A stretch of DNA of 64,000 nucleotides from Candidatus Hydrogenedentota bacterium (GTDB lineage: Bacteria > Hydrogenedentota > Hydrogenedentia > Hydrogenedentales > SLHB01), in contig BTWA01000003.1 of NCBI GenBank assembly GCA_045863295.1, positions 115,158 through 179,157 of the forward strand. The letters run 5' to 3'. The notes below the pieces were generated by a model. It had not been told where the DNA came from. It saw only the letters and a program-made list of their open reading frames with translations, and did not search any database. Shown here one piece after another: positions 518 through 25,700 of the stretch. How positions within the stretch are numbered: the first letter of the stretch is position 1; each line of letters opens with the position of its first letter. The position numbers and the translations under genes are program-made.

Positions 518-1147
518 ATGAAGCTTGCGGTTGCCTTATCCATATTGTTCATGGCGTTTGTAGCCGTTGCTTTCGACGCCTCGGCCCACGAGGAACTGGA
601 GCGGTATATCCAGCAACGAGTGATGGCGGAGGTCTCGCGCGAGAACATTGACTTTACGTTGGAGATCTTGTTCACGAGTCCCGCTTCCGTGAGGGAGCGT
701 AAGCGTATCGACGCGAATCATGATGGCGCTTTGGACAAGGCGGAGCGCAAGGCGTATCTGGAAAGCGCGCTGACGAAGTTGGAATCCGATGTTCGTTTTC
801 AAATTGACATGGAGGCCGTGAACATTGTTCCTCTGGGGGAACCAGAACTGGATCTGCTGGATTCAAAGGATATGGAGGCGCACCCGCATGTGTTGCGGTT
901 TCGATTTTTTGCGCGCACGCCGGGGTCGTTTCGGGGGGGCAGCGTGTTGCAGTTGGATTCGCGGTTGTTTGTGGACGAGCCGTGTTTGGTGTCTGTGTCC
1001 GTGCAGGGCAAAGGCGGCATTCAGATGAGCGTATCGCCGACGGAGGGACTCAAACGGGCGGCCGAGGATGAAGAGGGCATTTGCCTTCTCAAGGCGACTT
1101 GCCGGTACATTCGTTTGACAAAAAGCACTTCGGGGGAAGAGCCATGA
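518..1147 (+). CDS. Secreted hypothetical protein with a canonical EF-hand calcium-binding loop (DANHDGALDKAE)
   Basis: N-terminal signal peptide MKLAVALSILFMAFVAVAFDASA. The EF-hand loop matches D-x-N-x-D-G-x-L-x-x-x-E. The stop (1145-1147) overlaps the ATG (1144-1146) of the next gene as ATGA, which suggests translational coupling. Confidence 0.5.
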   Translation: MKLAVALSILFMAFVAVAFDASAHEELERYIQQRVMAEVSRENIDFTLEILFTSPASVRERKRIDANHDGALDKAERKAYLESALTKLESDVRFQIDMEAVNIVPLGEPELDLLDSKDMEAHPHVLRFRFFARTPGSFRGGSVLQLDSRLFVDEPCLVSVSVQGKGGIQMSVSPTEGLKRAAEDEEGICLLKATCRYIRLTKSTSGEEP

Positions 1148-3291
1148 AGCAATTTCTGATCGTGACGTTGTTCGCATTCGCCGTGGCGCACGGCCAGGAA
1201 ATGGAGGCGCTACCGGGCGCTCCGGAGATGGCGGGCGCGCTTGTGAAACAGCATGGGTATCTGTTTGGCGCCCCGGTATCGGCGGAGGCGGATGCCTCGA
1301 ATCGGGATTGGCAAGAAATACAGCAGGCGTCGCGCCGAGCGACCAGCGAAGAACAGAAGGCCGAAGTGGCGACACGGCGGGCCGCCGCGGCGGATGCGCT
1401 CGTGAAGTTGCTGGAGTCGTGTCCGGAAAAGTATGACTTGGCATTCACGGGGATGGAGACGACATTGCCGCCGCTGGCGCCGGCACGGTTTCCGGGCGAC
1501 TCCGCCGCATTCCTGTTTCGCGTGGCAACGGGCGATGGACCCGCTCGGTGTCTTGTGTTGGACTTCGATCTTTCGGAGCATTCCCATCTCCCGCAATTTC
1601 CGGTGGAAGTGGCGCCCGGTTGCACAACGTGGGTACTGGTTTCGTTGCGGCGGTTGCCGCAATTGACGACGCACTGGTCGTTCGAATTTCGCGTTGCGGG
1701 CCTTCCCACGACCTCACTTCCACTAACCCTGAAGGCATCGGATCACGGCACGCTGAAACTGTCGGTACTCTCGGATGACGATGGCAAGGTTTCCCCCGCC
1801 ATGATTCGATTGACCTGGAAGACCGATGGCAGCGATGTGCGTCCGGGCGGGGCATTGGATTTCAGTCCGCAGTTCGACAAACAGGGGAACCATACCGGCG
1901 CGCGGCGCGCGAACCTGCCGGGCAAGCTCGCGGGAGCGTATTGGTGCATACCGGGCGCCATTTCCATGTCGGTCGCGCCGGGCGAATACGACGTAGTGGT
2001 CCTTCGCGGGGTTGAGCACGTGGCGGTATACGACACGGTGACCGTGCCAGAGGGAGGCATGGCCGAGCGGACGTACCGGCCCCGGCGCTGGGTGAATATG
2101 CCGAAGGCGGGGTGGTACTCCGGCGACGACCATGTGCACTCGCAGATCTTGAGCGATGCGGATGCGGACGCGACCATGACCTGGATACAGGCTGAAGATG
2201 TGCATCTGGCCAATGTGGTCAAGATGGGCGATATCAACCGGACGTGGTTCGAGCAGCGGGGCTTCGGCAAGAACTACAGGGTAATCGACGGCGACTATAT
2301 TCTCTCGCCGGGGCAGGAGTGTCCACGCACGCATAACGAATTGGGCCACACGCTGGCGATGAACATCAAGAACATGATCCGGGACACGGATCGCTATTAT
2401 TTGTACGACACGGTTTTCGACGAAGTGCACCGGCAAGGGGGATTATCGGGCTATGCCCATGTGAACGCGGGGCTGTTTCACGTGCATCGCGACATGAGCA
2501 TGAACATTCCCAAGGAAAAGATCGATTTTGTGGAGTTGCTCCAATTCGCGGACATGAGCACGGATCTCTACTACGAGTTCCTGAATACCGGGTTTCCGGT
2601 CACCGCGTCGGCGGGGAGCGATGTGCCGTGGGGCGGGACTGTGGGCGAAGTACGGGTATTTGCCTACGTGGGCAAGAAGCGGTTTACCGCGGATCGCTGG
2701 TTTGAGGCAGTGCGGCGGGGAAATACGTTTGTGACCAACGGCATCATGCTGGATTTTACCGTGGATGGCGCGTTGCCCGGAGACACGCTGAAGGTCGGCA
2801 ATGGGGATTCGGTGCGCGTGAAGGCCCGCGCGTGGGGCGATCCGGAACGGGATGTGCCTTCCAAGCTGGATGTGATGGTGCATGGCGCGGCGGTGAAGAC
2901 GGTCGAATCCAGCGATCCGAGACAGGCTGAACTCGCGATCGAATTCGAATTGCCCGCCGCGAACGGGTTCTGGATTGCAGCGCGCGCGGAAGGCGCGGAC
3001 GGGTCCCGCGCACACACGACGCCGGTATATGTGATCCGGGACGGTCTGCGGTTCTGGAAATATGATGCGCTGGATGAGTTGATCGCCAAGCGCGAAGCGA
3101 GCCTCGCGGAAATAGAGCAGATCGTGGCCGAGGCGACGCAGGGGAACAGTCCGCGGATTCCCATGGGGCCGCGTCCGGCGGAGTTGCTGGCGCAACAAGG
3201 TCCGGCGTTGCTGGAAAGAGTGGAAGCGGCCAAGGCTATCTATGCGGAGCTGCGCGCAGCAAAGGAGGCCGAGGCGGCGTTACGGGAGTGA
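1144..3291 (+). CDS. Secreted PHP-domain (CehA/McbA-like) metallohydrolase family protein with a long coiled-coil C-terminal tail
   Basis: MKQFLIVTLFAFAVAHG signal peptide. GWYSGDDHVHSQ metal-binding motif typical of PHP/CehA-type hydrolases. An N-terminal beta-sandwich-like region precedes it. Paralogous to the 12245-13756 protein (shared GWWCGDLHVH / EY..LNTG..V..SAGS blocks). Confidence 0.6.
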   Translation: MKQFLIVTLFAFAVAHGQEMEALPGAPEMAGALVKQHGYLFGAPVSAEADASNRDWQEIQQASRRATSEEQKAEVATRRAAAADALVKLLESCPEKYDLAFTGMETTLPPLAPARFPGDSAAFLFRVATGDGPARCLVLDFDLSEHSHLPQFPVEVAPGCTTWVLVSLRRLPQLTTHWSFEFRVAGLPTTSLPLTLKASDHGTLKLSVLSDDDGKVSPAMIRLTWKTDGSDVRPGGALDFSPQFDKQGNHTGARRANLPGKLAGAYWCIPGAISMSVAPGEYDVVVLRGVEHVAVYDTVTVPEGGMAERTYRPRRWVNMPKAGWYSGDDHVHSQILSDADADATMTWIQAEDVHLANVVKMGDINRTWFEQRGFGKNYRVIDGDYILSPGQECPRTHNELGHTLAMNIKNMIRDTDRYYLYDTVFDEVHRQGGLSGYAHVNAGLFHVHRDMSMNIPKEKIDFVELLQFADMSTDLYYEFLNTGFPVTASAGSDVPWGGTVGEVRVFAYVGKKRFTADRWFEAVRRGNTFVTNGIMLDFTVDGALPGDTLKVGNGDSVRVKARAWGDPERDVPSKLDVMVHGAAVKTVESSDPRQAELAIEFELPAANGFWIAARAEGADGSRAHTTPVYVIRDGLRFWKYDALDELIAKREASLAEIEQIVAEATQGNSPRIPMGPRPAELLAQQGPALLERVEAAKAIYAELRAAKEAEAALRE

Positions 3292-7939: not shown

Positions 7940-9208
7940 TTACTTGGCGACGGGTTCGAGCACGTCGGAATCCGCTGGCACGATTGCCTCGCCACCGCCC
8001 ACGACGACAACGCCGTTTGGCGTCACGTGATACCGTTTGCGATCTTCGTCGAGGTCGTAGCCGATGACGGCATTTGCGGGGATTTCCACGTTCTTCTCGA
8101 TGATGGCCCGTCGAATACGGGCGTGTCTTCCAACCGTTGCGCCGGGAAACAGGATGGATTCGCGCACGCTGGAATAGCTGTTGACGCGCACGTCGGGACC
8201 GAGCACGGACCGCTTCACGATGCCGCCGCTGATGATGCAGCCGGCGCTGACGATTGAGTCCACGGCCGCGCCGTACCGCACCCCCTCCTGGGCGAAGACA
8301 AACTTTGCTGGAGGCGAGGCCGGTATAAGCGTATGAATGGGCCAATTGCGATCATAGAGATTAAACATGGGATCGACCTGGACCAGATCCATGTTTGCTT
8401 CCCAGTATGAATCGAGCGTGCCGACGTCGCGCCAGTATTGGGCTTCCTTTCTGTTCTCATCCTGAAACATGTAGGCGAATACGCGATTCTTTCCAATCAT
8501 GCCAGGGATGACGTCGCGGCCAAAATCGTGCGTGCTGCGGCGCTCGTGATCTTCCCGGCAGGCTTTCTTGAGCACCTCGGTACTGAATACGTAAATGCCC
8601 ATGGAGGCGAGGGCACTGTCCGGACGGCCTGGCGCGGGCGTGGGGTGCGAAGGTTTTTCCTCGAAGCCGGTCACCTGACCCGTAAAGTCCACTTCCAACA
8701 CGCCGAACCGGTGCGCGTCGCGCAGCGGCATTTGAATGGTGGCCACCGTGACGTCGGCCTTGTTTCGCCGGTGGTGTTCGACCATACGGGCGTAATCCAT
8801 TTTATAAATGTGATCGCCCGCGAGTATGAGCACTTCGCGCGGCTGTACGGGGTCGATCGAGTAGAGATTCTGGTAAATGGCATCCGCGGTGCCTTGATAC
8901 CAGTCATCGCCGACACGTTTTTGCGCGGAGATGACCTCAATAAACTCACCCAACGCGGGGTGGAGCATGTTCCAGCCTTGCCGAATGTGGCGGCTCAGAC
9001 TTAAATGTTTGTATTGAACAAGCACGAGAATGCGCCGGCATTGGGAATTGATGCAGTTGGACAGCGTGAAATCGATAAGCCTGTAGATGCCGCCAAAGGG
9101 GACGGCGGGTTTCGCCCGGTTGAGCGTGAGCGGATAAAGCCGTTCACCGACGCCGCCGGCCAACACCACGGCAAGGACATCTTTCATTGTGGCGTGGAGG
9201 CTAAGCAT
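7940..9208 (-). CDS. glgC: Glucose-1-phosphate adenylyltransferase
   Basis: LAVVLAGGVGERLYPLTLNRAKPAVPFGG N-terminal signature and full-length similarity to GlgC. C-terminal left-handed beta-helix region present. Confidence 0.85.
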   Translation of the reverse strand: MLSLHATMKDVLAVVLAGGVGERLYPLTLNRAKPAVPFGGIYRLIDFTLSNCINSQCRRILVLVQYKHLSLSRHIRQGWNMLHPALGEFIEVISAQKRVGDDWYQGTADAIYQNLYSIDPVQPREVLILAGDHIYKMDYARMVEHHRRNKADVTVATIQMPLRDAHRFGVLEVDFTGQVTGFEEKPSHPTPAPGRPDSALASMGIYVFSTEVLKKACREDHERRSTHDFGRDVIPGMIGKNRVFAYMFQDENRKEAQYWRDVGTLDSYWEANMDLVQVDPMFNLYDRNWPIHTLIPASPPAKFVFAQEGVRYGAAVDSIVSAGCIISGGIVKRSVLGPDVRVNSYSSVRESILFPGATVGRHARIRRAIIEKNVEIPANAVIGYDLDEDRKRYHVTPNGVVVVGGGEAIVPADSDVLEPVAK

Positions 9209-9836
9209 GTAAGTCCTCCCAGCCGATAAAGGCGCGGCATGGAGCGCCATCCGCCCCCTCAAGGGGCAGAGGCAACACGGTGAACCAGCAGTCACCCGCC
9301 GGCACGCCCATGAGACGCAGCCCTTCCACTATCAATACGTTGTTCTGCAAGAGGATGTGATGCGTTGGCTGGCCGGGCTGTTTGTAGGGGGCGACGGACA
9401 ACGCATCCACACCCACAAGGCGAACGCCCTCGTCCACCATACGCTGTGCGGCATCCGGATCCAACGCAACATAATCGGTCCGGAAAGGGTCTGAAGGAAA
9501 CGAGGAATTATCTGTTTTGATTAGAATTCGGGGCGGCAGATTCGCCTTGCCCAAGTCTTCCGCGGTGACGATCACTTTTCCTGTGCAGTCGATGACTGCC
9601 GCTTCTCCGAAGAACAGGTTTTTCGGTACCTGGTCAAGACGCGCGCCGTCATTTTCAAAATGCCAGGGTGCATCCACGTGGGAACCACAGTGGGTGCTCA
9701 ACGTGATGGCGGAAACGTTAGTTGACGCGCCATTGTCGATACGGGAACTGGGTGCGATAGAATACGGCACGTCGCCGGGCCATACGGTCATCCCTTCGCG
9801 AATTGGAATGCTGACATCGTGCCAAACGAGGCCCAT
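9201..9836 (-). CDS. Cyclase family protein (kynurenine formamidase-like metal-dependent hydrolase)
   Basis: HCGSHVDAPWHF motif characteristic of putative cyclases/arylformamidases. Start at MGLVWHD inside the track ORF 9201-9911. Confidence 0.7.
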   Translation of the reverse strand: MGLVWHDVSIPIREGMTVWPGDVPYSIAPSSRIDNGASTNVSAITLSTHCGSHVDAPWHFENDGARLDQVPKNLFFGEAAVIDCTGKVIVTAEDLGKANLPPRILIKTDNSSFPSDPFRTDYVALDPDAAQRMVDEGVRLVGVDALSVAPYKQPGQPTHHILLQNNVLIVEGLRLMGVPAGDCWFTVLPLPLEGADGAPCRAFIGWEDLHA

Positions 9837-10067
9837 AGAAGGCCGCCCCCCTTTCGAATGCGGGCAAGTTGCGCCGAGGTTGCCATACCAGGGGTATCTT
9901 GCAGGAAACACGATCCGAGCGACGTGACCGAATAAGGGCCGCGCCTGTCAAATCCCATATAACCCAGATGAATTATGCCACACGATTGTGATTTTGTCAG
10001 TAGGAATTCACCGCAAATGACCATACGATTTATTGGTATGCCTGTTCGAGGAGTTCGCCCTGCGGCA

Positions 10068-10454
10068 TCAAGGACCGCTTTTCCGCTTTTCCAGGGCGTC
10101 GACAGACTTGGCTAAGAGCGCCACCTCCTGAGCCAATGTGCGGTTTCGTTCTGACAGGCGCGATATTACTACGGTAAAGCTCAGCACGATACCGAGTGTG
10201 AAGATGAAATACATTGCGAACAAGAGCGTCAGATACTGGAAGTGCAGCCAGTTGGACACCGCCACGATGATATTCGGAAAGACTCCAACCACAAGCCCTG
10301 CCCCAGACGTAACCAGCCACAACAAGGCGTAGCGTTCCTTGAGGTAGCCGCGCCTGACCAGTTCCAGTACCGCTGCCAGTAATGCCAGGCTCAACAGCAG
10401 CAAGCCGATTCGGTGTGCGGGATGGATACCCATGAGTTGGTATTCAGGTGGCAT
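10068..10454 (-). CDS. DUF2304 family small membrane protein (common partner of polyprenol-phosphate GT2)
   Basis: LLSLALLAAVLELVRRGYLKERYALLWL matches the DUF2304 pattern. A GGAGA SD lies 5 nt upstream of the ATG at 10454. It is the last gene of the glycan operon. Confidence 0.6.
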   Translation of the reverse strand: MPPEYQLMGIHPAHRIGLLLLSLALLAAVLELVRRGYLKERYALLWLVTSGAGLVVGVFPNIIVAVSNWLHFQYLTLLFAMYFIFTLGIVLSFTVVISRLSERNRTLAQEVALLAKSVDALEKRKSGP

Positions 10455-11172
10455 CGGTATCTCCGGGTCGTGCCGTGTATTTCCGGAACACATCGATGAA
10501 GATGGCCAATCCGACTTTGACCATATAGTACACGGCCCGCAGAGGCGTAATGGACGTGCGGCCGCCTTGGCGCGGGTTCATATCCACCGGTACTTCGACA
10601 GCGCGCAGGCCGTGTTTGTGCAGAATAACCAGCGCCTCCGCCTCGGGGTAGTCGTCGGGATAATGGTGGGCGAAGACTTTTAGCGCCTTCCGGTTGGCGG
10701 CGCGGAACCCGCTTGTGGTGTCGGTGATGCCTCCACCGACTACGGTATCTACCAGCCGGGACAGCATCGATTTGCCGATGCGCCGGAACACCGAAGGGGT
10801 GTATTCGGAATCGGCGACGAATCGCGAGCCAATCACCAGATCACAGTCTCCCTGTTCCAGCCGCGACAGTAGTCGCGGAATCTGATGCGCTGGGTGTTGA
10901 CCGTCGGCGTCGCATTGTATGGCGACGTCGAATCCCTCACGGACGGCATATTTGAATCCGGTTTGCACCGCGCTGCCAATCCCCATGTTGAACGGCAGTC
11001 GAATCAAGTTGACGCCATCCATGCTCCGCACAATGGCCGCAGTCGCGTCCGCCGATCCGTCATCTATTACAAGGATAGCGCCATTGGGGACGTGCGCTTT
11101 CAGTGAAGCTACAACATCTGCAATGGTATCTGCTTCGTTGTACGCGGGAATAATAATTAGAATCCGCATCAT
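10444..11172 (-). CDS. GT2 family polyprenol-phosphate glycosyltransferase (DPM1/GtrB/ArnC-like)
   Basis: ILIIIPAYNEADTI...VIDDGSAD...DAD signature DxD motifs. About 240 aa, soluble-type GT2. Its ATG overlaps the TGA of the upstream gene (ATGA at 11169-11172). Confidence 0.8.
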   Translation of the reverse strand: MMRILIIIPAYNEADTIADVVASLKAHVPNGAILVIDDGSADATAAIVRSMDGVNLIRLPFNMGIGSAVQTGFKYAVREGFDVAIQCDADGQHPAHQIPRLLSRLEQGDCDLVIGSRFVADSEYTPSVFRRIGKSMLSRLVDTVVGGGITDTTSGFRAANRKALKVFAHHYPDDYPEAEALVILHKHGLRAVEVPVDMNPRQGGRTSITPLRAVYYMVKVGLAIFIDVFRKYTARPGDTDAT

Positions 11173-12236
11173 GATCGGCGTTCCCGAACAAACGTCCCAT
11201 AGTAGGCCAGGCCGGCAATCAGGCCGAGTCCGCGCGCAACATCGCGGAAGAAGTATAGCGGCCACGCCCAAAAAGTACCGAGGTACTTATACTCGTTCTG
11301 GGCATTATGCATCATGACGTTTCTCTGCAATCGATATCGCACGCGAGAAAAAAAGATAGAAACCGGAAGCATCACCACGATACACGCAAGCACCGCGAGT
11401 TTGCCAAAGGCACCAATTGGAGATTCCAGATCGAACGCTCTCCCGGCTATCTCAACACTGACAGACACTATAACGAGCAAATAGAAGAATAGCTCTAAAA
11501 TGGCCGCGGGCGGCGCCCACAATTCGGCCTTGCCCGCGTATTGATCGCCGCTGCGCCGGTTCGGGTGATTCACGTAAATCTTCACCCGCCAGAAACCGTG
11601 CCGCGCCTGAGTGCGCAGGTAGTTCCACATTTTGTCGGGGTGATGATGGGCCACACGAGCCTCTTTTATAAACCGCAAGATACCGCCGTTGTCCTGCAAC
11701 CGGTAGGCGAGATCATTATCCTCGCCGGAAGCCTTTTTGAATGTTTCGTCGAAACCTCCGGCGAGATCATACGCGGACTTGAGATAGGCCACGTTGAATG
11801 AACCCAGGAAGTCGACCTCCGTTTCGAACAGAGCATGCCTATACTCTATTTCGGCCTGTATCAGGCCCGCGAGCACGCTTTCCGGATTGGCAATGGTATA
11901 GGTGCCACCGACTCCGACGACGCCCTCGCCAAATCCGCTGACCAAATGCTCAATCCAATCAGTTTCCGGTATGCAGTCGCTGTCGGTAAACGCGATGATG
12001 TCGCTATCCGCGATTCTGGATCCGTGATTGCGCGCGGCAGCCGGCCCTCCATTTTCCTGATAGATGTACGTTACCGGAAAGCTCTTGGATACGTCTGCTG
12101 TATCGTCGGTGGATCCGTCGTCAACGACGATGACATCGTCGATGGGATAGGACTGGTTCAAACAAGCGTCGATACACGCCGCTATCGTACTTCCGGCATT
12201 ATATGCGGGGATTATAATCGCTACGGTTGGCTGCAC
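11169..12236 (-). CDS. GT2 family glycosyltransferase with a C-terminal transmembrane region
   Basis: VAIIIPAYNAGSTI...VVDDGSTDDT...TDSD motifs. Hydrophobic C-terminal segments. Confidence 0.8.
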   Translation of the reverse strand: MQPTVAIIIPAYNAGSTIAACIDACLNQSYPIDDVIVVDDGSTDDTADVSKSFPVTYIYQENGGPAAARNHGSRIADSDIIAFTDSDCIPETDWIEHLVSGFGEGVVGVGGTYTIANPESVLAGLIQAEIEYRHALFETEVDFLGSFNVAYLKSAYDLAGGFDETFKKASGEDNDLAYRLQDNGGILRFIKEARVAHHHPDKMWNYLRTQARHGFWRVKIYVNHPNRRSGDQYAGKAELWAPPAAILELFFYLLVIVSVSVEIAGRAFDLESPIGAFGKLAVLACIVVMLPVSIFFSRVRYRLQRNVMMHNAQNEYKYLGTFWAWPLYFFRDVARGLGLIAGLAYYGTFVRERRS

Positions 12237-12244
12237 GCCTTCCC

Positions 12245-13756
12245 CTACTTTGCGTTTGCGTCGTCAACGCGCTGGCTCCAGAATGCTTCGGCCTTGTTGT
12301 GATACGCGATTACCTCGGCAAGTTTTTCCGGATCGTCGTGCTTTACTCTTTCCCGGCGCTCGCGAGTCCAATCGAGAAAGAATTGCGCGGATTCGCGGCT
12401 GACACGACGGGGATTCTCGCCGATCTCCACATAAAAGGGTGCCGAGGAGGCGAAACGAAATGTATGTTGAACATCCGCGATAACCCGCACAAGAAACCAA
12501 CCGCTGTCTTCAAATGCGACAGACGCCAAAAATCCATCAGCGGCGACATCCTCCCTCGCGACGGTATGGGTTACTCGCCCGTTTTTTACAATTTCTATCG
12601 TGGTGTACGGGTCTCGCGCGATAATTTCCGCGGACACATCCACACTCAGGGGGGAGGCGGACTTAAACACATGTCCCGGCAATTCGCCGCTGGCGGCTGC
12701 CAACAGCAAGGGTCCGTTCGTGACGAAACTTCTCCCGGCAAGCAGCCCCTTCCACCACTTCTCATAAGTCAACTCGCCATCCAATTGCACATAAACGCGG
12801 TTGTATCCCACGGGATTGGGCAGCACACCGGACGCACTTCCGGCGGAGGGCGGTACGCGCAATCCGGTGTTGAGCAGGTGGTAGTAGATTTCCTGCGTCC
12901 ATGTGCCGTTGCCTCGAGGCGCTGGCAGGCGAACGGCATCGCGCGGTTTACCCCACGCTTCGCTTTCGTACATGCCGCCGCGGCACATATGGTTATTTGC
13001 AAGCCCTATGGAATCGCCGTGGCCCATGGCCAGCGCGGTCGGCACATCCCACCAGAATGGCTTTTCGATATCGATGTAAGTCTCCCGCTCATCGGCCACG
13101 CGTTCGAGAAAGGACATAGGTGAGGGCCATTCCCGGTCGGCTTTGGAAATCTCAAGAGGTTCTGTCCGGTTGAAGTAGAGAAAGGCGCCGCCTTCCCGCT
13201 CGTCTTCACCTCCCATTATGTGGTAGTAGCGATTGCCGGCGAGCTTCCGGAGTAGGGGTTCTTGAGGCGCGGTATCGCCCCACAGATTTTTTGCATTCCA
13301 CCAGGTAATGAATGGGGCTATGTACAGGTCTTCTGATTGCATTAGCAATTCGGCATGTTCGATGGGCCTGTGAACGTGGAGATCGCCGCACCACCACCCG
13401 CGAGAGGCCATGTTCGCCATCCGGTTCAGCGAAGCGACCACATCCTGTTTGCCTCCTCCGGCGAGTTCAAACGTGCCGGACACGGCACGATACTCCGGTC
13501 CCCGGTCTATTTCGTACGAATACGATCCGGGCGGCACATCGAGCGCGGCGGTGCCGTCGCACGAAAAATGATCGTGCCACCAAGGATAGCTTTCTACTTT
13601 GACCGGCTTGTGCTCCGCATCCCAGAGGTGAATGCGACACGGGATGGCTTGGTCATTTTCCGTGACCCGAAAAGTTACTATTTCCGCAAAGAGACACGCG
13701 GGCCCGGCCATTAGCGCTGCCGCCATGCAAAGAGCGATTCTTTCCATCATTGACAT
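12245..13756 (-). CDS. Secreted PHP-domain (CehA/McbA-like) metallohydrolase family protein embedded in the glycan operon
   Basis: Signal peptide. VPPGSYSYEIDRGPEY beta-sandwich followed by GWWCGDLHVHRP metal-binding motif. Paralog of 1144-3291. 9 nt from the downstream GT2. Confidence 0.6.
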   Translation of the reverse strand: MSMMERIALCMAAALMAGPACLFAEIVTFRVTENDQAIPCRIHLWDAEHKPVKVESYPWWHDHFSCDGTAALDVPPGSYSYEIDRGPEYRAVSGTFELAGGGKQDVVASLNRMANMASRGWWCGDLHVHRPIEHAELLMQSEDLYIAPFITWWNAKNLWGDTAPQEPLLRKLAGNRYYHIMGGEDEREGGAFLYFNRTEPLEISKADREWPSPMSFLERVADERETYIDIEKPFWWDVPTALAMGHGDSIGLANNHMCRGGMYESEAWGKPRDAVRLPAPRGNGTWTQEIYYHLLNTGLRVPPSAGSASGVLPNPVGYNRVYVQLDGELTYEKWWKGLLAGRSFVTNGPLLLAAASGELPGHVFKSASPLSVDVSAEIIARDPYTTIEIVKNGRVTHTVAREDVAADGFLASVAFEDSGWFLVRVIADVQHTFRFASSAPFYVEIGENPRRVSRESAQFFLDWTRERRERVKHDDPEKLAEVIAYHNKAEAFWSQRVDDANAK

Positions 13757-13842
13757 ACCCCTCGCACCGCTACCCTGGACATTCCCATAACAATATCATA
13801 CGCCGTTTAACCGAGCCGTGCTAAACCGATGGCCGAAGTATA

Positions 13843-14337
13843 CTAACGCGAACGCGCAAGGTTCATGGCCACTTGTGCCACCGCGGACTGTATGGAGCGC
13901 ACCAGGGGAACAGTGGCCGGCTCGTAGTCTGTTTTAGCCGGAAGGGGGTTGGCGAGCGCTTCCGCCAAATCATCCATGTGTACAATCATTCGGCCCCAGC
14001 CACGCCGCGCCACGGCTTGCGCCAAATCCAACTGATGATCGTCCATATGCTCATTGTGTTTTTTCAGGCGCGGCACCACAATAAGGGGACGCGAGGCCTG
14101 CATGGCCTCAATGACACATCCGATGCCCGCATGAGCGACAATGACCCGGGCTTCCCGCTGCAGCGCTACAATTTCTTGTCTGGGTTTGAACCGGAAATGT
14201 TCGCAGTGAACGGGCACGGTTTCCCCCATGCCGATCTGGCAAATGATTCGTTCGCCCGTGGATTGGGCGATGTCGTCCATCTTGCGAATGAGCCGCGCGA
14301 AATCGAGAAACATGGTGCCGACGGTGACATAGATCAT
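13843..14337 (-). CDS. Alg13-like glycosyltransferase subunit (GT28 C-terminal domain, PssE/Cps14G-like)
   Basis: MIYVTVGTMFLDF...VIVAHAGIGCVIEA...PLIVVPR pattern of Alg13/EpsF-type subunits. ATG overlaps the Alg14 stop (ATGA at 14334-14337). Confidence 0.7.
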   Translation of the reverse strand: MIYVTVGTMFLDFARLIRKMDDIAQSTGERIICQIGMGETVPVHCEHFRFKPRQEIVALQREARVIVAHAGIGCVIEAMQASRPLIVVPRLKKHNEHMDDHQLDLAQAVARRGWGRMIVHMDDLAEALANPLPAKTDYEPATVPLVRSIQSAVAQVAMNLARSR

Positions 14338-14825
14338 GGATTTGATCCCCGCCATTCGTCCACCAGACTGCCTTTGAATAACGCTTTGGGCCCGTACACG
14401 GGCTGCAATTCCGGCCATTGCACGTAGAACCAGTCGGCCAGGTGATACATAATGCGGCCGGTAAACGAGGGTCTTGTCACTTGGGCGCCGCATTCGACGT
14501 AGATAACCGGCGTGCGAAAGAACAGTTTTCCAATCACGACGGCGGGAATAGCAATTTCCGCACCGGTTGAGACAATCAAATTGGGCTTTTCCTTACGAAA
14601 TATTCGCCACACGCGCACGAGGTTTTTCGCCATTTCGATGGGATTGCGCGCCATGTTTGGAATCCGGTAGGCGGGATCCAAATGGCGGGTTGTGTCTGCG
14701 TCGTAACAGAAGTAAAACGTCCGATGCCCGTCGAAGGCCCCGAGCAATTGCAGCATTTCGGTGAGATGGCCGCCATGCGAGCATACAAGACAAATGGAAA
14801 GACGAGGCAGCGCCGAGTCCGTCAT
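14334..14825 (-). CDS. Alg14-like glycosyltransferase membrane-anchoring subunit (PssD/Cps14F-like)
   Basis: ICLVCSHGGHLTEMLQL...LIVSTGAEIAIPAV pattern of Alg14. Forms the bipartite UDP-sugar transferase with the adjacent Alg13-like gene. Confidence 0.7.
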   Translation of the reverse strand: MTDSALPRLSICLVCSHGGHLTEMLQLLGAFDGHRTFYFCYDADTTRHLDPAYRIPNMARNPIEMAKNLVRVWRIFRKEKPNLIVSTGAEIAIPAVVIGKLFFRTPVIYVECGAQVTRPSFTGRIMYHLADWFYVQWPELQPVYGPKALFKGSLVDEWRGSNP

Positions 14826-15811
14826 GGCGTCGCGCCGTCCCCGCGAAAGGGTTGCGGATTGGGGGTTGGCCGCGCATTACCGGGGATAGGGGTAAGCAAT
14901 CCTTTTAAAATGCCCCACGAGTAGGGCCATATAATAATCCATCGGGCAATCCACCGGGGAGCGGCCTTGGAAATACTGTTGAACTGAACCGTCAAGTAGG
15001 CGAACGTGGCGATCAGGGGCAATGCAGCGGTCGCGAGTCCTATCAACGGATTCAAAAATGCGAGAGCGATACCGGAAAGAAAGGTGGCCGCAAGAATAGG
15101 AATGACGAGGGTATACCACCACAAGCCTTCATACCACCCGGCCGCGCGCAACATGACGACGATATCTTTCCCCATCATCACGGCTTTGCGCCAGAGTCCC
15201 TTTAACCGTGTTTCGTAGTGGTGGTGCACCGCGGCATCCGCTTCAAACCAGATTTTCCACCCGGCCTTTCTCAGTGCCATGGACACATAGACATCTTCGG
15301 CTGCGCTGTGACCCGGCAGGCGGAGCCACCCCCCCACCTCGGCCAGTGCTGCCATTCGAAATGCGCTGTTACCCCCTATGACGCCGTCGGTCTCGCCCGT
15401 ATCCCGGGTCTCCACAAGAAACCACATGTGATGGAGCCACGCCGCAAGATTGCGGGGCCCGATCGGAGGGTGGCGGCCGGTAACTGCCGCGACGTCCGCC
15501 CGGGAGTCCAGGACCTGTTTCATTCGTTCGACCCATACTGGCGCGAGCACGCAGTCGGCGTCGGTGAACGCGAGGTATTCGGTGCGGCATTCCGCGAGAA
15601 CCGCATTGCGCGCTTCGTACAACCCGGTGGCGTCGCTTGCGATTACCCGTGCACCGAAGGAACTTGCCACGGCAGCGGTTGGGTCGCTCAGGTTGTCGAC
15701 CGCGACAATGATTGCCTCGGGCGGGACCGTTTGCTCGGCGATGCTACGCAGGCAATTACCGATGATGCTTTCGGCGTTGCGCGCACAAATGGCCAGGGTC
15801 AAGGAAGGCAT
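14822..15811 (-). CDS. GT2 family glycosyltransferase with a C-terminal membrane domain (first gene of the operon)
   Basis: LTLAICARNAESII...VDNLSDPT...TDADC motifs. Multiple C-terminal TM segments. Stop overlaps the Alg14 ATG (ATGA). Confidence 0.75.
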   Translation of the reverse strand: MPSLTLAICARNAESIIGNCLRSIAEQTVPPEAIIVAVDNLSDPTAAVASSFGARVIASDATGLYEARNAVLAECRTEYLAFTDADCVLAPVWVERMKQVLDSRADVAAVTGRHPPIGPRNLAAWLHHMWFLVETRDTGETDGVIGGNSAFRMAALAEVGGWLRLPGHSAAEDVYVSMALRKAGWKIWFEADAAVHHHYETRLKGLWRKAVMMGKDIVVMLRAAGWYEGLWWYTLVIPILAATFLSGIALAFLNPLIGLATAALPLIATFAYLTVQFNSISKAAPRWIARWIIIWPYSWGILKGLLTPIPGNARPTPNPQPFRGDGATP

Positions 15812-15954
15812 GCGATTCCTTTCAGGACATAGTTCCCACACGACTGCGCATTGAGCGTAGCATACGGCGTGGCAACGGGTGCGGCAACCGGCCTTGACTG
15901 GCTGAGCGCAAATTGTCTACTTTGGCCGCCTTGGGTCTGTTCTGTGCACTGTGG

Positions 15955-16026
15955 GCCCCGGTAGTTCAATGGATAGAACGAGTCCCTCCTAAGGACTAAA
16001 TCTGGGTTCGATTCCCGGCCGGGGCA
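15955..16026 (+). tRNA. tRNA-Arg (anticodon CCT)
   Basis: Manual cloverleaf. Acceptor GCCCCGG/CCGGGGC, D-arm GTTC-AATGGATA-GAAC, anticodon arm AGTCC-CTCCTAA-GGACT (anticodon CCT), T-arm CTGGG-TTCGATT-CCCGG, discriminator A. No encoded CCA. Confidence 0.8.
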
Positions 16027-16092
16027 TATAGCATAAGTTATTTTAACTAAATAGCTTGCCTCGAAAGTGCCTGAGTTTTTCGCAATCGATTC

Positions 16093-16122
16093 TTGACAGA
16101 AAAACTCGAAAAAGCCATAATC
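16093..16122 (+). promoter_or_regulatory. Sigma70-like promoter candidate in the AT-rich spacer after the tRNA
   Basis: TTGACA (16093-16098), 18-nt spacer, ATAATC (16117-16122). The local region is distinctly AT-rich relative to the window. Confidence 0.3.
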
Positions 16123-16173
16123 TAATGTAGAGAAATAGGACTGCGAACTGATTGCCCAGCGCGAAAGGGCGCT

Positions 16174-16824
16174 GTGTGTCGTGAGTGCATTGTCTTGGTC
16201 ACCATGCGTGGCAAGGTATGTACGCGCGGTATGGGAAGTGGTGTCATGGGCGTTCGAATCGGCGATAGCGCACAACGCTTGGAAGCGTTTCGATTCGCGT
16301 CGTTCAATACGGCGGGAGCGGCCGCACCGCGCGCTTCGGAAGCAGCCATTCCAACGGTTGGGTTTGGTTCCAGGTCCAACGAATCCGGTGCGGCGTCCAC
16401 GCTTTTTCCTGAGGAGCGCCCGGAACCGCAGCGCGTTGGATTTGGCACGGGAACCGTGTCAGCGCCGGCAGCGGCATTGCGCACGCTGGATCGGAATCTT
16501 GCGGAAGCGGAGAAAATCGTCCCCACCTTTGAAGAACTTCAGCAGGAAGTCCGGGACCGGATTACTCGCGAGCAGGAACGTTTGGCGCGGGAAAATCCGC
16601 CCACGAGTTCTCCGGCAACGTTTGACTTGCGCGAGGCCACGACCAGAGCTTCGGATACAGCGCGCGGATTTGTAAACGGTTTGAACGATGCGGCCGGCAC
16701 TGCGCGGGCGCGATTGCAAGGCGAGACACCGCCGGAAACCAATCGCATCGATGTACGCGTGGGCAGCGAGCAGGTTGCGCTGACGCGATCGACACAAACC
16801 CCCGCTTTTGAATTTTTTGCCTGA
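16174..16824 (+). CDS. Hypothetical protein (Ala/Glu/Arg-rich, no recognisable domain)
   Basis: Longest ORF in the region with moderate GC3. Several overlapping ORFs on both strands compete, so the call is weak. Confidence 0.3.
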   Translation: MCRECIVLVTMRGKVCTRGMGSGVMGVRIGDSAQRLEAFRFASFNTAGAAAPRASEAAIPTVGFGSRSNESGAASTLFPEERPEPQRVGFGTGTVSAPAAALRTLDRNLAEAEKIVPTFEELQQEVRDRITREQERLARENPPTSSPATFDLREATTRASDTARGFVNGLNDAAGTARARLQGETPPETNRIDVRVGSEQVALTRSTQTPAFEFFA

Positions 16825-16944
16825 CATCCCCTTTTCGTTTCACTTCTTCGATTGCAGTACACTTGTGGAATGTCCCACGTGTGAATTCTATTCTGCTAGA
16901 CTCCAAGAATCGAGGGATACCGGGTGGTCGTTTTGAAGACTTCG

Positions 16945-17340
16945 ATGCGCTATCTGATGGCCGTGTTGTTCGTTGCGGCAGGCGCAAATCATTTCATCAA
17001 TCCCGATTTCTATATCCAGATCATGCCGACGTACCTGCCGTTCCCTCGCGCACTGGTATTGTTGAGCGGCCTCACAGAGATTGCGGGCGGCGTTATGCTG
17101 TGCTTTCGCAAGACGGCTGTGGTTGGAGCATGGAGCATAGTGGCGATGTTGGTTGTGTTTTTTCTGGTGCACATCGACATGATCATTCACGCGGATCGGT
17201 ATCCGAGCATGCCCATGTGGGGCCTTGTACTGCGGTTGTTGTTGCAGTTTCTTTTGATTGCGTGGGCATGTTGGTTTACCCGGCCCGTATCCAATGCCGC
17301 TGCGACAATTTTCGATCGGCAAGCAAAGCAGGAGCAGTAA
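16945..17340 (+). CDS. DoxX family membrane protein
   Basis: MRYLMAVLFVAAGANHF...LLSGLTEIAGGVMLCF has three to four TM helices in the DoxX/SURF4 pattern. Confidence 0.6.
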   Translation: MRYLMAVLFVAAGANHFINPDFYIQIMPTYLPFPRALVLLSGLTEIAGGVMLCFRKTAVVGAWSIVAMLVVFFLVHIDMIIHADRYPSMPMWGLVLRLLLQFLLIAWACWFTRPVSNAAATIFDRQAKQEQ

Positions 17341-17345
17341 GAGAC

Positions 17346-17729
17346 ATGAGTCGAAATGGGTTTCTGGCGGTGTCGGGGGTATTGGGCGCACTGGCGGTCG
17401 GTCTGGGGGCGTTTGGGGCGCACGGACTCAAGGATCGCTTGTCCACGGAAATGCTGGCCGTTTGGCACACGGCCGTGCAGTATCATTTTTACCATGCAAT
17501 TGCGATGCTGGCCGTGGCTGCGGGCGTGGCTGGATTGTGGAAACAACCCTTGACCGGTTGGGCGTGCTGGGCGTGGACCTTGGGCATCGTCGTTTTCTCC
17601 GGCAGTCTGTATGCCCTTGCGCTGACTGGAATCAAGATACTAGGCGCGATTACCCCGTTTGGCGGCGTGGCCTTTATTGCGGGATGGGTATTGATTGCCA
17701 TTGCCGGCTGGAAAGCTTCTCTGGAGTAG
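17346..17729 (+). CDS. DUF423 family membrane protein
   Basis: LAVSGVLGALAVGLGAFGAHGL...YHFYHAIAML pattern typical of DUF423 (YgdD-like). Starts 6 nt after the DoxX stop. Confidence 0.65.
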   Translation: MSRNGFLAVSGVLGALAVGLGAFGAHGLKDRLSTEMLAVWHTAVQYHFYHAIAMLAVAAGVAGLWKQPLTGWACWAWTLGIVVFSGSLYALALTGIKILGAITPFGGVAFIAGWVLIAIAGWKASLE

Positions 17730-18295: not shown

Positions 18296-18402
18296 AACCG
18301 AATCGTACCATTGCGCGAAGCGGGTTGCCAAAAATGACGGGCCGTGTGGTACAGTGTGGCGCACTTGGGGTCAAGGCAACCCGCATTGGAGACGAATGTG
18401 TT

Positions 18403-19269
18403 ATGAAGGGCATTATTCTGGCTGGCGGATCGGGCACTCGGTTGCATCCGATTACCCTGGGCATCAGCAAACAACTGATGCCTATCTACGACAAGCCGAT
18501 GATCTATTACCCGTTGTCGACGCTGATGTTTGCGGGCATTCGGGATATCCTCATCATTTCGACTCCCCACGATTTGCCTTTCTTTAGGCGACTCCTGGGG
18601 GATGGCAAGCCGCTGGGGTGTACGTTTTCGTACGCGGAGCAGGCCGTGCCGAATGGACTGGCGCAGGCGTTTGTGATCGGCGAGGAATTTGTGGGTGACG
18701 ACAAAGTGGCGCTGATCCTGGGCGACAATATTTTTTACGGCATGGGTTTGGGAAAGCATATGCGGTCGTACTCGGATCCCGATGGCGGCGTGGTGTTCGC
18801 GTATCACGTGTCGGATCCGGAGCGGTATGGCGTGGTGGATTTCGATGCGACGGGCAAGGTGCTGTCGATCGAGGAGAAACCGGCGAAACCGAAATCGAAC
18901 TATGCAGTCCCAGGGCTTTATTTCTACGACAACAGTGTGGTCGAGATTGCAAAGAATTTGAAGCCGTCCGCTCGAGGCGAATACGAAATCACGGATGTGA
19001 ATAAACATTATCTTGCCATGGGCAAGTTGAAGGTGGGTATTCTCGAACGGGGTACGGCGTGGTTGGATACGGGCACGTTTGAGTCATTGATGCAGGCGGC
19101 GCAGTTTGTGCAGGTGATTGAAGACCGGCAGGCCCTGAAGATCGGCTGCATCGAAGAGGCGGCGTATCGAATGGGGTTCATTGATGCGGCGCAAATGAAA
19201 GCGTTGGCGGAACCGCTGCGGAAGTCGGGGTATGGGGACTATTTGCTGAAGTGTTTGGATCATAAGTAA
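18403..19269 (+). CDS. rfbA: Glucose-1-phosphate thymidylyltransferase
   Basis: [39 protein letters not shown] is the RmlA signature. Full-length 288 aa. Confidence 0.85.
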
Positions 19270-21233: not shown

Positions 21234-22712
21234 TTACGCAAGCAACTGCGGCACGAGTTTGCCGGCAACATCGGTGAGGCGGAAGTCGCGGCCTTGGTAG
21301 CGGTAGGTGAGTTGCTCGTGGTTGATGCCGAACAGGTGCAAGAGCGTGGCGTGGAGATCGTTGACGTGGACGGGGTCTTTGACGATGTTCCAGCCGATTT
21401 CATCCGTTTCGCCGATGATTTGGCCGCCTTTTATGCCGCCGCCGGCCATCCACATGCTGAAGGCGAAGGGGTGGTGATCGCGGCCCGTGTTGGGCGCGCG
21501 GCCGACACGGTTTTCGCCCAATGGCGTGCGGCCGAATTCGGCGCCAAACACCACGAGTGTTTCGTCGAGCAGGCCGCGTTGCTTGAGATCTTTCAACAAG
21601 GCCGCGATGGGTTGATCGCACATCATGCAATTGAACGCAAGGCGATCATCGATGTCTTCGTGGTGATCCCATGTAGCGTGGTAGATATTGATGAAGCGCA
21701 CGCCGCGTTCCACGAGGCGCCGCGCAAGAAGGCAGTTCGAGGCAAATGAATTGAATTCGTCGGGGCCGCCGTTGCGGAATTTTTTCCAATGATCGCCTTC
21801 GGTGCGGTTCACACCGTACATTTCGAGCGTGGCGTCGCTTTCATCGGACAGATCGATCAGATCAGGCGCTTCCAACTGCATTCGGCCCGCGAGTTCGTAG
21901 GACGCGATCTTGGCCATGATCTCGGGGTCGTGCGTTTGGTTGTATCGCATCTGATTTAAATCGCGAATCGCGTCAAGCCCCGCGCGCTGGCAATCGTGCG
22001 GCAAATCGGCGGGGTTGCTGAGGTAGAGCACCGGGTCGCCCTGGTTGCGGAAGAGCACGCCTTCGTAGTTCGACGGCAGAAATCCGCTCGTCCAGTTCGA
22101 TGCGCCGCCGCTCGTGCCGCGGCCTGAATTCAACACAACGTAGCCCGGCAGGTTTTCGGATTCGCAACCCAGGCCGTAGTTGATCCAGGATCCCATCGTG
22201 GGCCGGCCGAAGGTGGGCACGCCAGTGTTCATCATCAATTGGCCGGGGTGATGGTTGAACGCTTCCGTGTGCATGGATCGCACCAGCGCAATGTCGTCGG
22301 CGCACGTGGCGGTATGCGGCAGAAGGTCCGACAAATCCATGCCGCATTGCCCGTGCTTCTTGAACACGCGGTTGCAGCCCTTGAGCACGGCCGTTTCTTT
22401 TTGAATGAACGCGAAGCGTACCTTTTCCACCATGGAGTCCGGCAACGGCTGGCCGTCCAACTCGTTCAATTTGGGTTTGGGATCGAAGAGATCGATTTGG
22501 CTGGGCGCGCCTTCCATGAAGAAAAAGATGCAGGCTTTGGCCTTCGCGGGGAAGTGAGGCGTTTTGGGTGCGAGTGGATTCACGGCGTCCGCGTGTGCCA
22601 ACAAGCCGTCGCTCATGAGTAGATTGGCCAGTGCGATTCCGCCAATGCCGCTCGCGGCAGAGGTCAGAAAGTGACGCCGGGATTGAAGCCTTTGTTCTTC
22701 GAATGGATGCAT
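21234..22712 (-). CDS. DUF1501 domain protein (sulfatase-like fold) with Tat signal
   Basis: N-terminal RRHFLTSAASGIGGIALANLL twin-arginine signal. DUF1501 body. Pairs with the upstream PSD1 protein as is typical in Planctomycetota. Confidence 0.8.
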   Translation of the reverse strand: MHPFEEQRLQSRRHFLTSAASGIGGIALANLLMSDGLLAHADAVNPLAPKTPHFPAKAKACIFFFMEGAPSQIDLFDPKPKLNELDGQPLPDSMVEKVRFAFIQKETAVLKGCNRVFKKHGQCGMDLSDLLPHTATCADDIALVRSMHTEAFNHHPGQLMMNTGVPTFGRPTMGSWINYGLGCESENLPGYVVLNSGRGTSGGASNWTSGFLPSNYEGVLFRNQGDPVLYLSNPADLPHDCQRAGLDAIRDLNQMRYNQTHDPEIMAKIASYELAGRMQLEAPDLIDLSDESDATLEMYGVNRTEGDHWKKFRNGGPDEFNSFASNCLLARRLVERGVRFINIYHATWDHHEDIDDRLAFNCMMCDQPIAALLKDLKQRGLLDETLVVFGAEFGRTPLGENRVGRAPNTGRDHHPFAFSMWMAGGGIKGGQIIGETDEIGWNIVKDPVHVNDLHATLLHLFGINHEQLTYRYQGRDFRLTDVAGKLVPQLLA

Positions 22713-22727
22713 CGATGCGGTACCTCG

Positions 22728-25700
22728 CTATTCCCGCGTTACAAATTCGTTCAGATTCATAATAACCCGCGCCAGCGCCACGTGGGCGGCGGTGTCGCAC
22801 GCGTTGGGATCGTCCGGTTTCAACCCGCCGGCAAATTGCGCCACCATTTCGCCGCCGCTGGCGAATGCCTGGCGTTGCTCGTTCAGAAAATCCACCAGCC
22901 GTTGAATCTCTTCCTCGGCGGGTTTCCGGCCCAAACAGGCGCGAAAAGCGTATTCAACGCGATCGCGGTCGTTGGGCTGGCCCGTCGCCAAGGTCTTTTT
23001 TCCGAGGGCCTGGGCGCACTCGAACAACACGGGATCGTTTAAGCGGTTCAACGCCTGAAGCGGCGTGTTTGATCGGTTCCGCGCGATCGCGGTCGTGTTC
23101 GAATTTGGGCAATCGAAATTCATGAGCATGGGATAGGGCACGGTGCGTTGAAAGAAGATGTACAGGCCGCGCCGGTATTTTTCCGGTCCGTTGTCCACCG
23201 CCCACTTTACCGAGTTGGCATAGCCCAGATCGGCAATCCCCTCGGGCATGTACGGCCTTACACTTGGACCCCCGACTTCAAGATTGATCAAACCGCTCGC
23301 GGCGAGATTAATGTCTCGAATGACTTCCGCCTCCACGCGGAACGTGTTTTGCCGGGCGAGGAGTTTATTTTCGGCATCCGACTCGGCCAGTTCAGTCCGG
23401 TAGTGCGACGACTGCCGGTACGTGGCAGACGAAGTGATCAAGCGAATGGCATTTTTCACGCTCCAACCCTGCGCCATGAATTCGGTGGCGAGCCAATCCA
23501 ACAATTCGGGGTGGGTGGGCTTTTCGCCCCGCACGCCAAAGTCCTCGGGGGTGCGCACCAGTCCTTCGCCGAACAGCACGCTCCACATGCGATTCACCTG
23601 CACGCGCGCGGTGAGCGGGTTTGCCGGGTCGATAATCCAGCGTGCAAGGTCAAGACGATCGGGCCGTTCGCCGCGCGCCTTAAACGGGTGTAATACGGCC
23701 ATAGTGCCGGCCTGCACTTCTTCGCCGGGCGAAAGGAAATCGCCTCGCTGATGGATGAATGTCTTGGGCGGTTCAGGGTTTTCCGCCAATGCCTGCGCCT
23801 TTGTGTCGGGCTCTTTGGGGAGCGCTGCGCGCAAAGCGTCCAACGTGGCAATGAGCCTTTTGATGTTCGGCTCGTTACGGCCGAAGTATTCAAGCACGGC
23901 CTTCTGCTGCACCTCAGTTCTTTGATCGGAAGGTGTACGCAGCGCCACATGTACATCATCCGGATACGGGAGCGCGGATGGCGGCGTCTTTGAATAGGAC
24001 AACCGAAAACGGCCGATATTGTGCTCGCGACCGTAATTGAAATCCATGACGAACGTCAGGACGGTGCCGTCGGTCTGGCCCACGTCCTTGTTTACGGCAA
24101 AGGTCGCAGTACGATTCTCGTTCATGTTTTCAGCGCGATAGATTGCCCAGCCCGTGTTGAGATCGCCATCAATGGCATTGGCTGCACGCAAATCGTTTTG
24201 TTCAAAATCCGCCACTGGCTCGGACAGTTCATACTTCGTCTGTTTCGCCGGGTTGGGAATGGGCGATGCGTAGACCGCAAACTCACTCAGCACGAAATTT
24301 CCATTGTGGGCGCGGCCCGGGCCATTTCCCGGCAGGCTGGGATCCGTGAGGGCTTCAATGCGGAAGCCTTTGATGCCGGTCTCTTGCGTCCGCACCACGA
24401 CGGTATATTTATCGCGTCCCGATGCCGGGCCGGTGACCAGGATAGACTTGTCTTCCTGCACGGCAAAGCTCGACCCCGATGCGGACAGAAAGCCCGAAGG
24501 TTCGAGTGCGGTCCAGCCCTGATCGGGCACCTCGAGAGATGCTTCCCATTCCGCGAGCTTTCCGGCGAGGGCTTCTCGCTGCTCCAGAATCTGCTTCTCG
24601 ACCGACGCGATTTCCTTTTCGATTTGCGCTTTTGCCTGCACGTAGGTGGCCATTTCCCCATCGCGCAATGCGGGGATGTCTTGTTCCATGGCCGTATTGA
24701 AAAACGAGTACATCTGGTAGTACTCGCGTTGGGTGATGGGATCGTATTTGTGCGTATGGCACTCAGCACAGGCCATGGTCAGGCCCATTAAGGCGGATGC
24801 CGTTGTATTGATGCGATCTTTGGCTTGCGCCACTCGAAACTCTTCTTGATCGACACCGCCTTCGCGATTTGTCAGGGTGTTCCGGTGAAATCCCGTTGCC
24901 ATGCGTTGCTCGGTGGTTGCATTAGGGAGCAAATCGCCTGCCAGTTGTTCAACGATGAATTGGTCGTAGGGCATGTCGCGGTTGATGGAATCGATTACCC
25001 AGTCCCGGTACCGGTATGCGAATGGTCGTGGCGAGTCCTTTTCGTAGCCATCGCTGTCCGCATAGCGCGCCAAGTCCAGCCAATGCCTCCCCCACCGTTC
25101 GCCGAAGTGCTCAGAGGCCAACAGGCGGTTGATCAGGCTTTCGTAGGCATACGGGTTGGTGTCGTTCACAAAGGCGTCGACGTCTTCAGGGGTCGGCAAC
25201 AGGCCAAGCAGATCAAGATACAGGCGCCGGATCAATGTGGGACGATCCGCCTCGGGGGCGGGTGAGATCCCCGCAGCCTCAAGCCGTGCAAGGACGAAGT
25301 TGTCAATGGGGTTCCGTGTCCAGTCCGGGCGGCTCACGCCGGGGACAGTCGGATGTGCAATAGGTTGATACGCCCAATGGTCACTGACAACCCGGGCATC
25401 GCCTTCGTCCTCGGGCCAAAGGGCGCCCTGGTCGATCCAGGACTTGACGAGCGCGACCTGATCAGCGCTGAGCGGTTCGCCCTTGGGGGGCATGATGTCT
25501 TCGGGCCTCGCCCCACTTATCCTTTGGAACAGATCGCTATTTGCGCTGTCGGATGCTACCAGCACGGGTCCGGAATCTCCTCCGCGCATGGCATCGGCCT
25601 TGTGGTCGAGACGCAGCCCGGACTGCTGCTTTTCAGGACCGTGGCACGAGATGCATTTGGCGGCGAAGATTGGGGCGATGTCTCGTTGAAAGTCGACCAT

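Follow-up and report, generated by a model that had tools for sequence, protein, structure and literature searches.

A CehA/McbA-family PHP-fold gene occupies the variable slot of a conserved two-module glycan cluster in a Hydrogenedentota genome

The DNA stretch analyzed here (the window) comprises 64,000 nucleotides (nt) of Candidatus Hydrogenedentota bacterium AMXMBFR84 (contig BTWA01000003.1, positions 115,158 to 179,157) and contains a glycan gene cluster in which a gene for a putative secreted hydrolase is embedded. According to the list of open reading frames (ORFs), the cluster consists of seven minus-strand ORFs of one direction spanning 10068-15811. The family and the position in the gene order that the initial annotation had given to each of them were upheld by Pfam and NCBIfam searches. 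A check of the gene neighbourhood in Planctomycetota had been proposed, but the host does not belong to this phylum, as the hydrolase-like protein of 503 amino acids (aa), the second of the three glycosyltransferases of the cluster (GT2b) and a larger paralog of the hydrolase all match AMXMBFR84 proteins with 100% identity.

The first gene of the cluster encodes a family 2 glycosyltransferase (GT2a; 14822-15811, ATG at 15811) with a PF00535 domain (E=2e-22) and hydrophobic C-terminal segments, and starts what is termed here module 1. It is followed by the genes of an Alg14/PssD-like split-glycosyltransferase subunit (14334-14825; PF08660, E=3e-16) and of an Alg13/PssE-like catalytic subunit (13843-14337; PF04101, Glyco_tran_28_C, E=1e-15), the latter ending module 1. 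The Alg14-like protein scored 134.4 bits against the PssD model NF041549 (cutoff 110), and the Alg13-like protein 105.2 bits against the PssE model NF041548, just below the cutoff of 120. A spacer of 86 nt (13757-13842) at the module boundary separates the Alg13 gene from the hydrolase gene downstream of it (12245-13756), which encodes the 503-aa CehA/McbA-family PHP-fold protein with a signal-peptide-like N-terminus; translation from a second possible start, at 13750, would yield 501 aa. The first conserved gene of module 2 is GT2b (11169-12236; PF00535, E=1e-33), which has a GTG start and encodes a C-terminal membrane region. It is followed by GT2c (10444-11172; PF00535, E=3e-28), a GacI/PpgS-like polyprenyl-phosphate-sugar synthase, and by DUF2304 (10068-10454; PF10066, E=8e-21), its small GacJ/Rv3632-like membrane partner; comparison with four aligned orthologs and the independent Logan gene call fixed the start of this gene at 10454. 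No priming phosphoglycosyltransferase is encoded within the cluster, where no GT-C transferase or flippase was seen either, and Pfam and NCBIfam detected no kinase among its genes. A GT-C transferase gene was also absent from the ORFs examined in about 16-30 kb of the window.

The junctions between these genes were read directly. GT2a/Alg14, Alg14/Alg13 and GT2b/GT2c are joined by ATGA overlaps, whereas 11 nt are shared between GT2c and DUF2304. Three of the four ATGA junctions from which strict co-translation had been deduced are therefore real, the fourth does not exist, and the hydrolase gene lies outside the chain. It is the sole unchained gene, located 86 nt past Alg13 and 8 nt ahead of GT2b, and no ATGA overlap couples its translation to that of a flanking cluster gene. 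Because GT2b starts 8 nt past the hydrolase stop codon, the hydrolase gene and module 2 probably share a transcript here, and the GTG start of GT2b is preceded by the Shine-Dalgarno-like sequence GGGAAGG. ATGA overlaps are commonplace in compact bacterial operons, and the cluster copies of relatives also show gene overlaps, in part at other junctions. Scanning of the spacer revealed no terminator and one weak promoter-like match (TTAGCA-18-TATGAT, 13824-13795; 9 of 12 positions), which was not above background since shuffled sequence gave as many. The spacer has no counterpart in the cluster of the sister genome AMXMBFR82 (locus L087), where Alg13 and GT2b overlap by 4 nt.

The surroundings of the hydrolase gene were compared in 80 species-representative ortholog loci (49-61% identity) from Hydrogenedentota, Verrucomicrobiota, Planctomycetota and Acidobacteriota. 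Each locus included up to 10 kb of flanking sequence per side, as far as the contig permitted, and was searched by tblastn with the window proteins. Alg14, Alg13 and DUF2304 were found in none of the 80 loci within 10 kb of the hydrolase ortholog. GT2a was matched in one locus, GT2b in five and GT2c in three, the last two as weak generic GT2 matches. In an all-against-all clustering of the flanking ORFs, any one neighbour family recurred in 10 of the 80 loci at most, the commonest being DUF1501 (10 loci), protein kinase (9), Gfo/Idh/MocA (8), PSD1 (6) and sulfatase (6). Outside AMXMBFR84, the 503-aa family is encoded as a stand-alone gene.

The reciprocal comparison started from the cluster. 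In L087 and in a further locus (L091) the order GT2-Alg14-Alg13-GT2-GT2-DUF2304-cyclase-NTP_transferase was found without the hydrolase gene, and Alg13 directly adjoins GT2b in both. Identity to the L087 proteins amounted to 62-71% for all genes (GT2a 67%, Alg13 62%, GlgC-like 71%) except GT2b (48%). The last two genes in this order correspond to the downstream neighbours of the cluster in the window: a cyclase/arylformamidase-like gene (9201-9836, minus strand; PF04199, E=9e-23; 168.6 bits against TIGR03035, below the cutoff of 223) and the ORF of a GlgC-like sugar-1-phosphate nucleotidylyltransferase (7940-9208, minus strand), whose counterparts in L087 and L091 carry PF00483 (NTP_transferase). 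A wider set of 84 loci, many of them truncated, was anchored on GT2b homologs; 80 of these loci were added by a metagenome scan. Neither the hydrolase nor its larger paralog was encoded in any of the 84 loci. GT2c follows GT2b in most of them, a DUF2304 homolog was found in 41, a GlgC-like homolog in 11 and a cyclase homolog in 7. In 26 loci Alg13 is located upstream in the same orientation, and in 21 of these it adjoins GT2b (at most 260 nt between the edges of the tblastn matches). The remaining five contain inserts of 0.6-3.8 kb with DinB_2 genes between Alg13 and GT2b, and two of the five inserts also hold opposite-strand genes, one for an SBBP beta-propeller protein and the other for a sigma-70 fusion. 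Since many of the 84 loci contain GT2b-GT2c-DUF2304 without Alg14/Alg13, the two modules are separable.

The supposed seven-gene operon is therefore composed of two separable modules and a variable slot between them, in which the hydrolase gene is located, and GT2b-GT2c-DUF2304 forms a widely conserved core. Conservation of the neighbourhood in relatives had been named beforehand as the point on which the proposed link between hydrolase and glycan pathway would stand or fall. It was not observed in any of the 80 ortholog loci or the 84 GT2b loci, nor in L087 and L091, where Alg13 abuts GT2b, which left the postulated periplasmic step of glycan processing by the hydrolase unsupported. The comparative evidence gives no reason to count the hydrolase as a component of the pathway. 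The commonest occupant of the slot before GT2b was DinB_2, present in one or two copies in 9 of the 84 loci (L086, L088, L092, L094, L095, L096, L099, L107 and L115), and DinB_2 is thus a better candidate than the hydrolase for a true accessory of module 2. Many of the GT2b homologs align with 59-66% identity over the N-terminal two-thirds only; the C-terminal membrane region is therefore the variable part of GT2b.

The cluster genes were further compared with characterized systems. The Alg14/Alg13 pair resembles the split glycosyltransferases PssD/PssE of Rhizobium, Cps14F/Cps14G of pneumococcus and eukaryotic Alg14/Alg13, which combine an Alg14-like subunit at the membrane with a catalytic GT28-C subunit, and the two window genes are adjacent and overlap by ATGA. 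In GacI/GacJ of Streptococcus pyogenes and PpgS/Rv3632 of Mycobacterium tuberculosis, a GT2 polyprenyl-phosphate-HexNAc synthase is paired with a DUF2304 protein, a small three-helix protein that binds and strongly stimulates the synthase (bioRxiv 10.1101/180810). Similarly, GT2c of the window is directly followed by the overlapping DUF2304 gene, and the pair recurs in relatives. The best NCBIfam matches of GT2c were PpgS (NF058614), AglJ and a dolichyl-P-hexose transferase, all below their cutoffs; for PpgS, GT2c reached 116 bits of the required 370, and the equivalog match that fixes sugar specificity was not obtained. The PssD/PssE-type pair and the GT2c-DUF2304 architecture support the claim that the cluster assembles a lipid-linked glycan. 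Judging from their families, GT2a, Alg14/Alg13 and GT2b would extend a lipid-linked sugar acceptor on the cytoplasmic side of the membrane, while GT2c and DUF2304 would synthesize a polyprenyl-monophosphate sugar as GacI/GacJ and PpgS/Rv3632 do. The latter product could serve as the donor for a GT-C enzyme encoded elsewhere and acting at the outer face, and the GlgC-like enzyme probably supplies the activated (nucleotide) sugar.

The 503-aa protein scored 95.4 bits against the CehA/McbA model NF038032 (cutoff 80), with only profile positions 156-315, the C-terminal half, aligned. NF038032 was the sole NCBIfam model matched, and no Pfam family was found. Pfam PHP (PF02811) matched neither this protein nor the 715-aa paralog, even at E<=10. 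Searching the Protein Data Bank (PDB) with the 503-aa protein, the family profile and the paralog yielded no match to any chain, and a literature search on the NCBIfam family name gave no results. The family contains more than 3,000 homologs, the best of which (55-61% identical) are from Hydrogenedentota, Verrucomicrobiota and Planctomycetota. In an alignment of 30 sequences of the family, the mean column identity was 61%. The AlphaFold2 model generated from this alignment (mean pLDDT 87) shows an N-terminal, transthyretin-like beta-sandwich (about residues 25-110). The core that follows (alpha/beta, about 120-345) has the PHP-like barrel fold and includes two loops modelled with low confidence, 255-261 and 308-316. 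Beyond the core lie another beta-sandwich (about 350-445) and, at the C-terminus, a helical hairpin. The region of residues 120-320 is unusual in its invariant motifs, WWN..N.W, GEDER.GGA, D.EKPFWWD.P, ANNH..R, EAWG..RD, GNG.W.QE.Y and SAG.ASGVL.NP.GY.R. Model confidence was lowest at ANNHMCR and ASGVLPNPV; both segments are likely to form loops of the active site.

Comparison of the 503-aa family with the paralog family by hhalign (probability 99.9, E=3e-34) allowed the presumed metal ligands to be compared, their roles being inferred from PHP enzymes and from CehA/McbA mutagenesis (PMC8292978). The HxH pair (H330 and H332 in the paralog) is kept as H127 and H129, and E392 is kept as E184. 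H439 and D493 of the paralog are replaced by the invariant residues N254 and A308, respectively, and H402 has no counterpart. The 503-aa protein hence lacks the full set of presumed His/Asp/Glu ligands. The curated model assigns it to the CehA/McbA family, in which it represents a PHP-fold protein whose active site is remodelled. Its description as a secreted PHP/CehA-like metal-dependent hydrolase was borne out by the NF038032 match and the PHP-like fold, but neither by a PF02811 match nor by the ligand set; on these grounds the label of a metal-dependent phosphoesterase should not be assumed. Since hydrophobic N-termini are present in nearly all orthologs, one of them with a Tat-like RRDFL motif, the protein is likely to be exported, putatively by a Sec-type signal.

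CehA and McbA are hydrolases of the carbamates carbaryl, carbofuran and oxamyl. Both enzymes depend on histidines of their PHP-like domain, and McbA resides in the periplasm (PMC8292978). The 503-aa protein shares with them the NF038032 match above the cutoff, the PHP-like domain followed by a beta-sandwich, the (here predicted) export and the HxH motif. It differs in that only half of the profile is matched, in the ligand changes described above, and in that neither xenobiotic catabolic genes nor mobile elements are linked to its gene. Two structural-genomics proteins, the two-domain PHP-like phosphoesterase 3E38 and TM0559 (2ANU), are 11-12% identical to the 503-aa protein and have themselves no assigned substrate; in comparison, the 503-aa protein possesses in addition the N-terminal transthyretin-like sandwich and the C-terminal helical hairpin. 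A PHP-superfamily protein is known from inside capsule polysaccharide operons, namely the phosphotyrosine phosphatase CpsB/Wzh. However, CpsB/Wzh is a small cytoplasmic regulator working with a tyrosine kinase, and an identity of the hydrolase with it was rejected because of the length of 503 aa, the extra domains, the signal-peptide-like N-terminus, the absence of a Pfam family and the absence of a kinase from the cluster.

The compared relatives do not share the insertion of the hydrolase gene, and the two modules meet at a variable slot; the protein encoded by the inserted gene has a PHP-like fold, and its metal site is remodelled. With a probability that we put at roughly three in four, the locus represents a conserved two-module cluster for an envelope glycan or a glycolipid with a guest gene, which would have landed at the seam of module 1 and module 2 in one lineage and whose role would be independent of the glycan pathway. 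Several points weigh against this interpretation. The hydrolase gene is co-directional with GT2b and close to it, and a functional tie at the level of this lineage is possible. An exported enzyme would share its compartment with the decoration that depends on the polyprenyl-phosphate sugar. The relatives compared are at most 61% identical and do not constrain the age and spread of the insertion, and the 64 kb of the window do not tell whether AMXMBFR84 has retained a further copy in the home locus described below. Moreover, the 503-aa family has no assigned substrate or even reaction class.

The strongest of the other explanations is a recruitment specific to this lineage, in which, much as initially postulated, the PHP-fold enzyme performs a periplasmic step in the processing of the glycan, for example the removal of phosphate, pyrophosphate or an ester-linked group. 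The co-directional arrangement with the Shine-Dalgarno-like sequence ahead of GT2b, as well as the export signals, would fit such a step, and the adjoining GT2b has diverged more than any other cluster gene, which could reflect co-adaptation. However, the comparison showed no conservation in either direction and unrelated genes fill the same slot elsewhere. The family also retains about 55-60% identity over four phyla, where its gene contexts are unrelated, and this speaks for a single conserved role that is independent of the cluster; recruitment is considered unlikely. The more specific proposal that a PHP-fold enzyme left with about half of its canonical metal ligands was recruited as a periplasmic processor of the glycan or lipid carrier of the polyprenyl-phosphate-sugar pathway is more doubtful still. 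If true, it would provide the first functional handle on a family of more than 3,000 homologs in four phyla without a Pfam model or solved structure. A link in trans, by which the 503-aa family invariably targets the GT2b-GT2c-DUF2304 product, is normally encoded apart from it and was joined with its partners here, would agree with AMXMBFR82, where the cluster (L087) and the ortholog (L001) are present on different contigs. Against this stands the lack of co-localisation across the 164 surveyed loci, and this link is less probable again. Misassembly or misbinning of the metagenome, from which the genome was indeed assembled, as the cause of the arrangement is highly improbable, because run DRR491770, assembled independently by Logan, yields a 9,016-bp contig (L174) that matches window positions 8580-17595 at 100% identity and in the same gene order, the GC content is unremarkable and continuous, and both junctions of the gene lie within unique, repeat-free sequence.

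The guest-gene interpretation is further illustrated by the location of the orthologs in other Hydrogenedentota. Their home locus has the order GT2 (228 aa)-URO-D-TauE-amino-acid permease-(aldo-keto reductase)-hydrolase-758-aa protein and was found in L001/L006, L008, L009, L012, L089 and L090; the gene of the 758-aa protein, which has no Pfam domains, is convergent. None of the home-locus genes of the relatives was present within the window. In a neighbour-joining tree, the window copy was the long-branched sister of the Hydrogenedentota orthologs. This placement together with the unremarkable GC content favours a relocation within the lineage over a recent foreign import. No signs of mobile elements were detected around the hydrolase gene, that is, no meaningful flanking repeats, no GC anomaly and no Rfam element besides a tRNA, and the tree, the GC content and this absence fit an intragenomic relocation. 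An imperfect 26-nt inverted repeat (73% complementary; 12268-12293 and 13831-13856) that brackets the hydrolase gene is probably due to chance. In one locus (L003) the ortholog is followed by a permease gene, and the two overlap by 4 nt. The amino-acid permease was rejected as a family-wide clue because it is confined to three Hydrogenedentota loci. Run DRR491770 also holds the ortholog home locus of the AMXMBFR82 type (L002) beside the AMXMBFR84-type cluster with the hydrolase gene, and therefore two related populations with alternative placement of the gene coexist in one sample.

Overall, the locus amounts to a conserved cluster of ordinary kind in which a gene of an already known, uncharacterised family is a one-off guest. 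The initial observation was accurate in most respects, but not in the very feature that had made it seem remarkable. It illustrates that a tidy-looking operon with one odd gene can be the result of a one-off relocation, and that a test of neighbourhood conservation settles the question. The 503-aa family, which is highly conserved, widespread and predicted to be exported, represents a reasonable biochemical target independent of the glycan locus.

The larger paralog of the hydrolase proposed at 1144-3291 (plus strand) proved real. This 715-aa CehA/McbA-family protein scored 192.3 bits over the full NF038032 profile, has the fuller PHP-type ligand set and belongs to a family of its own with members of about 720 aa that are 50-70% identical. 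Its gene overlaps by ATGA with that of a 209-aa exported partner protein (518-1147, plus strand). The coupling of the paralog to a secreted EF-hand protein was thereby confirmed as far as the ATGA overlap is concerned, but the EF-hand is a single EF-hand-like loop below the threshold of every EF-hand model (EF-hand_5, E=0.044, 13.7 bits compared with 25.9), and the small protein reaches the threshold of no other Pfam model. The loop reads D-A-[ND]-x-[DN]-[GD]-x-[LI]-x-x-x-E, and its ligand-like positions 1, 3, 5 and 12 are kept in three homologs. The gene pair with the 4-nt overlap also occurs in L172 (3384-6151) and L173 (3354-6205), where the small proteins are homologous, and it is a conserved two-gene module of at least three genomes. 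As no glycan genes were found around this module, it gives no support to a glycan role of the family.

At its upstream edge the cluster is flanked by a gene for tRNA-Arg(CCT) on the plus strand (15955-16026), detected by ARAGORN and Rfam (RF00005, 67.6 bits). A separate NTP_transferase gene for a sugar-1-phosphate nucleotidylyltransferase (18325-19269, plus strand) is located 2.5 kb upstream of the cluster. Finally, DUF1501 and PSCyt1/PSCyt2/PSD1 genes lie adjacent to each other at 21234-25811 on the minus strand, a pairing typical of Planctomycetota-like genomes.

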